In this document: positions 56,022 to 56,880 of the stretch, one piece after another
Numbering within the stretch: the stretch's first letter is position 1
Layout of the letters: each line of letters opens with the position of its first letter
From: Octopus vulgaris
Lineage: Eukaryota
Length of the DNA: 64,000 bases
Assembly: GCA_951406725.2 (NCBI GenBank)
Contig: OX597824.1
Location: 16,430,001-16,494,000, forward strand
Direction: 5' to 3'
Translations under genes and position numbers: made by a program
Notes under the pieces: generated by a model
What the model was told of the DNA's origin: nothing
What the model saw: the letters and a program-made list of their open reading frames with translations, nothing else
Databases searched by the model: none

Positions 56022-56880
56022 TGGTAGGTACAATAAATTCAGTGTAAGCACCTGTATATGCCAGCTAGTAGCAGAGGTGAGAGGGTATATGCATCAAATG
56101 AAATAAAAAACAGAACACAACGGATGTCGCGGTACACGTGTTTCAAGCTTTATACAACAACCTATTCTTACATCAATGTATAGGCGACATAACAGATGGT
56201 TTAAAGCTCTCTTCAGCCGCATGCAATTGCTATACCAAAGACCTGTATCACATTATGAAAAATCCGAAAATGTACATTTGGTATTATCTATAATGGTGGG
56301 TATATTGAGTTTCACTGAGAAAGTATGTTTGTAAATCTAATCTTCATAATCAAATAGGTATGTAGGGTATCATTGGACTTCAAAAATCCGTCCATACTCC
56401 ATCATCAGTCAACATAGAGTTTGAGTCTCTGTTGAAGGCATTTACAAGAACTAAAAGAATAAAAGAAAGGAAAAGGGCAAAGTAAAGAAAAAAAGGACCA
56501 AATCATAATACTCAGTCTGTGAGAGCTAAATCAATGTGAAAAAAATATACCAAAAGCATAACGCAAATGATCATTAGAGAAGTGTAAAAATCACTCACCG
56601 TTGGAAAGTCTGCCATGTTCCTCTTATATTAATCAGACACATCAAATAAGAAAGTTGTGATACTACTATTTTGCTTCAGCTGACCCGGCCATATTTAACA
56701 TTATCCCAACATAATTCAAGGCGACAAAAACAAATAGTACACGGATAAAATCCTCCTGGATTCCTTACGGCGAAATAGTTCTTTACTTCAGTAAATTATA
56801 GTGACACAGAAGATGACGTAATCAAAGCTCAAAGAATTTTATCAGGTTAGACATAGCCTGTGTTAACACCGGTCGAAAAT
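56022..56880 (-). mobile_element. Candidate Penelope-like pseudo-LTR with intron and hammerhead
   Basis: Minus strand: donor ACG|GTGAGT (56598), polypyrimidine tract and TTTAG acceptor (56451), hammerhead 56129-56220, ends in (TA)n. Confidence 0.55.
56129..56220 (-). ncRNA. Canonical type I hammerhead ribozyme with extended stem II
   Basis: gcgg-CTGAAGA-gagcttta(~49 nt)taaagctt-GAAA-cacgtGTA-ccgc; palindromic stem III acacgtgt, GUA cleavage triplet. Confidence 0.85.

Follow-up and report, generated by a model that had tools for sequence, protein, structure and literature searches.

Organization of the locus

The window analysed here is a 64,000-nt stretch of Octopus vulgaris DNA (contig OX597824.1). 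At 56022–56900 its minus strand carries, in the order of reading, a promoter-like region, an ATG followed by an intron-like stretch, a hammerhead ribozyme motif and a (TA)n microsatellite (Table 1). An earlier note, made from the sequence alone, had described these features as one compact unit, and the individual signals that it listed are indeed in the sequence: the CRE-like octamer TTACGTCA at 56821–56814, the ATG at 56616, the donor GTGAGT at 56598, a TTTAG acceptor ending at 56451 after a gap of 148 nt, the joined frame MADFPTFL*, and the (TA)n tract after the hammerhead. The octamer is found twice in the window, and many other motifs could equally have been chosen.

The surroundings are rich in repeats. 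Beyond the (TA)n tract lies a long near-perfect hairpin within a larger, MITE-like inverted repeat, and on the other side a very high-copy repeat ends with a sharp boundary at 57420/57421 in the contigs of all four runs. Other small hammerhead motifs, with the 4-nt palindrome ACGT and belonging to different families, were seen at two further places in the window and also at locus L129.

Table 1. Features of the hammerhead locus and of the rest of the window, as interpreted here.
Feature	Position	Strand	Description or basis
Single-copy flank outside the element	56421..56900	-	CRE-like octamer, ATG, intron-like stretch; copy comparison
ATG and six codons (MADFPT) ahead of the donor	56599..56616	-	Good Kozak-like context; sequence
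GT-AG intron-like stretch, 148 nt	56451..56598	-	Strong donor, 19/20 pyrimidine tract; host intron or chance
5'-truncated PLE 3' end (pLTR part and tail), Hydra-like	56023..56420	-	Genome matches, best 94%
Type I hammerhead	56129..56220	-	Helix I 4 bp; helix II 8 bp with 49-nt irregular extension; helix III 2 bp
Tail extension into the element's 5' UTR	56023..56040	-	Comparison with L071, clustered 3' ends
(TA)n microsatellite	55904-56020	.	Likely insertion target
Long near-perfect hairpin	55598-55720		In a larger inverted repeat, ~55500-55860
Very high-copy repeat	57421-57600+
Small hammerhead motif, other family	17765	+	Palindrome ACGT
Small hammerhead motif, other family	~17357	-	Palindrome ACGT
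Mariner transposase remnant	5044-5756	+
zf-RVT LINE end	37750-38796	+
52-bp tandem unit	39651-41769		41 copies
RT remnant	42370-42618	-
SINE-like tandem units, 184-186 bp	25013-25496, 43564-43919, 52518-52881, 59313-59664		Dispersed, abundant

Copy comparison across the element boundary

A genome search with 56022–56900 as the query returned 59 matches from 40 scored of 1855 candidates. Among the matches scored, the 58 others all fell within query positions 479–878, i.e., 56420 and below, and none included the upstream part; the best of them are 94% identical to the window element and begin at query position 481 (=56420). Used alone as a query, the upstream part matched only itself (one candidate in genome G000), a 27-mer across the donor with three mismatches allowed had one match in G000, and the more distal stretch 57020–57415 gave its self-match only. 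Independent contigs from runs X1 and X3 show the same division, with one contig at a depth of about 5–6 on 56502–56872 and hundreds to thousands on the repeat. One X1 contig (record 7) spans the junction over 56370–56879 with 7 differing letters. The junction thus also occurs in a contig of another sample and does not stem from an assembly error.

The exact 20-mer at the breakpoint was then compared across copies (30 of the 31 exact matches). The window's upstream DNA follows it in 0 of the 29 other copies: 19 run on into a common T/C-rich family 3' UTR, seven of these looking like one insertion duplicated, and 10 switch to other flanks or to inverted pieces. No similarity above shuffles was detected between the upstream 480 nt and the family UTR of four copies, as 35–137 of 200 shuffles scored as high in local alignment.

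The supposed compact unit therefore comes apart into a repeat that starts at 56420 on the minus strand and an upstream part that is single copy throughout; promoter, intron and ribozyme are likely two unrelated pieces side by side. Judged by the copy comparison, 56421–56900 does not belong to the pLTR, whatever its nature. The reading we favour, with a probability of roughly 0.85, is that a multi-copy Penelope-like element (PLE) with Hydra-clade motifs has left its 3' end, 5'-truncated and hammerhead-bearing, at 56420–56023, and that the promoter- and intron-like DNA upstream is foreign to it.

The Penelope-like element family

A hammerhead 22-mer, with up to two mismatches, has 738 matches in the genome and 0 in the control. 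The earlier note had proposed looking for copies that adjoin PLE ORFs, and such copies were found in the genome, e.g., L071. The hammerhead belongs to a PLE pLTR. Longer family copies carry an RT–endonuclease ORF and a pLTR–ORF–pLTR layout. Upstream in long copies comes a microsatellite-rich 3' UTR of about 2 kb, and beyond it the end of the ORF. In L071, a member of the window's subfamily, a short 5' pLTR piece is followed by a broken ORF and a 3' hammerhead part that is 91% identical to the window.

More complete copies occur in a younger sister subfamily whose members are 94–97% alike (L106, L107, L108, L109 and L113, on C3, C23, C4, C1 and C30 of G000). L106 contains a 1520-nt direct repeat, 99.6% identical and with a hammerhead in each copy, in a unit of about 4.76 kb, and L108 holds an open frame of 842 codons. 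The partial tandem pLTR–ORF–pLTR arrangement with a hammerhead in the pLTR is seen in L106, in L109 and in L111, as well as in L071 with its 5' pLTR cut short. The endonuclease ends of the two subfamilies align at E 2e-62.

Marks of an EN+ PLE, namely LYRDD and VIY..YIG (RT and C-terminal GIY-YIG), were recognized by eye in the family ORF. In BLASTP the family protein matched, across the RT and thumb, another PLE of this genome that Pfam does recognize (E 4e-8). Pfam detected neither RT nor GIY-YIG in the family proteins P0001 and P0002, and PDB gave 0 matches, so that the RT assignment is based on the motifs together with the BLASTP match. By its ORF, pLTR layout and truncation pattern, the family is an EN+ Penelope-like element. 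No published account of it was found in the literature; a family like this one could be present in further supplement parts or in the repeat libraries Repbase and Dfam, which lay outside the search. We conclude that the window element is an ordinary decayed stub of a new family within a known PLE clade.

Several neighbouring observations concern other copies. An ORF near copy L032 (GIY-YIG, CxxC type) was considered as the family ORF and set aside as belonging to other PLE families. The locus (G000:C7:110891000-110899500) is a nest of elements in which an RTE-like piece and an antisense PLE from a different clade interrupt the family 3' UTR, the PLE having an open RT–EN frame of 557 codons. 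L060–L063 and L075 (on C35, C36, the start of C21, and C1) represent one copy in a segment duplicated at least seven times, with some instances near contig ends.

Two candidate introns within the family were also noted. One, starting at the GTAAG of loop II, is present in 43 of 47 close copies but missing in sister subfamilies, and was dropped. The other, a weak candidate, lies in the 5' UTR downstream of the hammerhead, some 110 to 12 nt ahead of the ORF start; its donor reads CAG/GTGCTT and, about 98 nt away, its acceptor TAAC...CTTTAG. It was seen in L076, L077, L080, L082 and L083–L092. Four subfamilies retain it in most of their copies; breaks were noted in individual copies, and its pyrimidine tract is poor. 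The window copy stops short of its acceptor.

The hammerhead motif and its predicted dependence on dimers

The hammerhead motif in the window is real, with CTGAAGA from 56216, GAAA from 56144 and a predicted cleavage step at 56133/56132, and the stem II insert described earlier counts 49 nt between the 8-bp helix II arms. The same description had called the ribozyme perfect and canonical, which does not hold for a monomer: a G.U replaces the G-C at 10.1–11.1, and helix III has only 2 bp. The hairpin proposed within the insert (cctat/tagg) is present, but it results from changes private to the window copy, and none of 47 family copies shares it. Among 47 aligned family copies (the best matches, some of them duplicated), 41 keep the core intact, and the occurrence of the hammerhead is beyond chance. 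An Rfam search gave 0 hammerhead hits at the gathering score and none among 30 hits at E ≤ 10, probably due to the 49-nt insert.

Predicted pairing probabilities are 0.88–0.94 for helix I and 0.90–0.95 for helix II, and 0.03 for helix III, whose palindrome in the window copy is ACACGUGU. The self-duplex of this 8-nt palindrome has a predicted energy of −10.3 kcal/mol. Between subfamilies the palindrome changes on both sides, ACACGTGT to ACATATGT. Palindromy is kept in the sister subfamily despite the difference in both central bases, a pattern that suggests selection for dimer formation among parent elements. In such an element, the hammerheads of its two pLTRs, or those of two separate RNAs, would pair via the 8-nt palindrome; this pairing would build a stable helix III and allow the precursor to be cut.

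Within the window and 200 kb of its neighbours, no second hammerhead of this family was found. Modelling predicts that the window hammerhead is of a dimer-dependent type with weak activity as a monomer, and the lone copy would likely cut poorly or not at all. Changes private to the window copy include a 5-nt duplication near 56340 and a deletion of about 17 nt near 56041, in the tail. The copy looks old and decaying and is likely drifting neutrally.

The upstream flank and a possible host intron

Donors of the class GTRAGT paired with an acceptor of 19/20 pyrimidines at 60–300 nt were found in 0 of 15,272 control 480-nt stretches, rising to 32 (0.2%) at 18/20 pyrimidines, to 147 (1%) at 16/20 and, with the looser donor GTRAG at 16/20, to 638; these frequencies refer to overlapping stretches of repeat-rich DNA and to thresholds chosen after the site had been seen. 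The pair in the flank is probably rarer than background beyond chance. This strength is suggestive only of a real intron, and the stretch may represent a first exon with intron of the host, whether intact or relict.

An alternative to our reading would accordingly keep the foreign flank and make it functional: a host promoter, first exon and 148-nt intron, with the PLE stub lying about 30 nt into exon 2. A transcript spliced in this manner would read the hammerhead in sense and might be cut at that point with the aid of a partner RNA from a different copy of the family. The strong donor, the long pyrimidine tract, the Kozak-like ATG, the scarcity of comparable pairs in the controls and the presence of the junction in another sample's contig all fit this proposal. 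Against it, the joined frame stops after 8 codons, SINE-like repeats provide many strong splice-like sites in this genome, and the ribozyme copy shows private decay with no neighbour to pair with. A continuing exon or a host gene for the ATG exon was likewise not found. Pfam assignments among 214 window ORFs of at least 55 aa were transposon-type or weak only, and no non-transposon family appeared in 150 of the 162 minus-strand neighbour ORFs of at least 70 aa (200 kb), a scan that left out 161 plus-strand neighbour ORFs and that short or family-less exons would escape. Taken together, we consider this alternative unlikely. A repeat related to the SINE-like units of Table 1 carries, in many of its copies, a strong acceptor about 69 nt from a GTAAGC donor.

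The earlier note's suggestion of a spliced self-cleaving non-coding RNA could, on sequence grounds, persist as a host–transposon chimera with a ribozyme of dimer-dependent type. Its fullest form, in which the host promoter and the 148-nt intron drive a spliced non-coding RNA, the second exon is the stub and the hammerhead is trans-activated by family transcripts, seems to us highly improbable. A look-up of sequencing runs gave none of RNA type for 56300–57400. Contigs from putative RNA runs do not cover 56502–56872 and show no joints on the window (one run); on copy L034 (four runs) they give coverage and no GT-AG joint, the only breaks being a single switch of strand and a skip of 96 nt bounded by TG..GC. 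Being contigs, they are uninformative either way. An HDV-like ribozyme considered for the flank (a 9–10 bp stem near 56740/56665) was dropped, as no fitting inner helices were seen by eye.

Truncation, tail and insertion

In addition to the 738 hammerhead matches, the pattern at the window breakpoint has 194 matches (control 10) and a pattern 41 nt further upstream has 122 (control 6), each with up to two mismatches. This steady fall shows no sharp boundary, as expected of 5' truncation and not of a fixed short unit, with subfamily divergence also contributing to the counts. Inverted 5' pieces occur in many family copies, and the family 3' ends form two clusters about 70–75 nt apart, both counted among PLE signatures in the excerpts of the literature used here (PMC8557442, Fig. 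2 legend; PMC11167929).

The 3' end of the window element continues into sequence that is 5' UTR in the ORF-bearing L071; it runs a few nucleotides past the distal 3'-end cluster and stops about 70 nt short of where the ORF begins in the parent layout. Most members of the family end in (TA)n, a target preferred by Hydra elements according to section 11 of PMC8557442. The 5' junction in the window has no (TA)n, unlike many copies, possibly from a later deletion or a microhomology join.

These features suggest a course of insertion. The element's own reverse transcriptase would have primed at a nicked (TA)n and begun to copy a partial-tandem transcript at an internal position just within its 5' UTR, giving the tail, and reverse transcription would have stopped after about 400 nt to leave the 5'-truncated stub. 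Internal initiation of reverse transcription has been shown for PAc, a Poseidon element of Anolis (Frangieh et al. 2024, PMC11167929, excerpt).

The same 400-nt piece might instead be a full-length, non-autonomous retrozyme-like unit, or the flank a host RNA captured by template switching; we regard either as very improbable. About half of the top genome matches do start near the same place, and retrozymes have been proposed to derive from pLTRs (bioRxiv 10.64898/2026.07.22.740005), but match ranking favours copies that start near the same place, the pattern counts fall steadily, the window has a single unit with no tandem units seen, and the family shows graded truncation and ORF-linked copies. 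Capture by template switching is opposed by the lack of a parent copy of the flank elsewhere in G000.

Comparison with known elements

Comparisons in this section refer to excerpts of the cited papers and their supplements. In Drosophila virilis Penelope, as in the present family, the pLTR carries a hammerhead (PMC8557442, PMC4209133). The Penelope pLTR also holds a 75-bp 5' UTR intron (PMC8557442) whose end meets helix I (PMC4209133), whereas the intron-like stretch described here lies outside the element. The earlier note's proposal of a solo pLTR spanning all 860 nt, promoter and retained intron included, follows this precedent and deserves almost no credence: the upstream part is single copy, is missing from all 29 copies and from ORF-bearing copies with intact 5' pLTRs, does not resemble the family UTR and places its acceptor 230 nt from helix I, and what family copies have upstream is another sequence, a T/C-rich 3' UTR. 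The note had itself named splice signals unconserved in the family as evidence against its reading, and 0 of 29 copies share the flank. By this sequence comparison the solo pLTR is already refuted, unless the assembly lacks some rare subfamily that has this 5' part.

Returning to a truncated PLE stub beside foreign DNA, its family would be placed in the Hydra clade (Craig et al. 2021, PMC8557442; including Hydra-1_Obim) by protein motifs read by eye, an assignment that is provisional to that extent. P0001 and P0002 show the clade's DKT, the CxCx5C linker, CxxC and CxH (these two around the conserved E and N), a lack of CCHH, and the order RT then endonuclease. Family and clade share further a type I hammerhead near the 3' end with a short helix III, the (TA)n target, the tail and inverted 5' pieces. 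There are also differences. The family has RWA at the place where RWK is described for the clade, and its helix II extension is 49 nt, against listed Hydra loops of 3–10 nt. The unit of about 4.76 kb (L106, sister subfamily), with a 3' UTR of about 2 kb and an Asn-rich ORF insert, compares with 1.1–3.0 kb listed for Hydra and exceeds the <3 kb that is typical of the clade, a descriptive and not a strict length. An octopus Hydra family listed in the supplement, Hydra-1_Obim, measures 2507 bp, and its hammerhead is unlike that of the present family, which is thus a different one.

The minimal hammerheads of metazoan PLEs (Cervera and De la Pena 2014, PMC4209133) are alike in their long helix II of 7–8 bp, a helix I of 4–5 bp and a small palindromic helix III, and they too are mostly found as lone truncated copies. 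The present family differs from them by the G.U at 10.1–11.1 in most copies and by a far longer loop II. In that study a lone minimal PLE hammerhead (the Schistosoma motif) gave no cleavage, and dimers gave low cleavage. In PAc (PMC11167929), two internal RT starts explain 3'-end clusters and a tail comparable to those described here. Its ribozyme overlaps the ORF start, while that of the family lies about 200 nt upstream of it, and insertion of PAc in vitro needed no ribozyme cutting.

Implications

The window copy matters little in itself, being one truncated end among at least several hundred in its PLE family. If its flank is a transcribed host intron, the locus would be a modest example of ribozyme gain by a host RNA, and if the trans-activated chimera were true, it would be a host RNA whose cleavage would sense transposon transcription. 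The family adds a member with a long UTR and a long helix II to the Hydra clade. A fair substrate for asking what PLE hammerheads do would be its younger sister subfamily, in which both pLTRs and an open frame are present.
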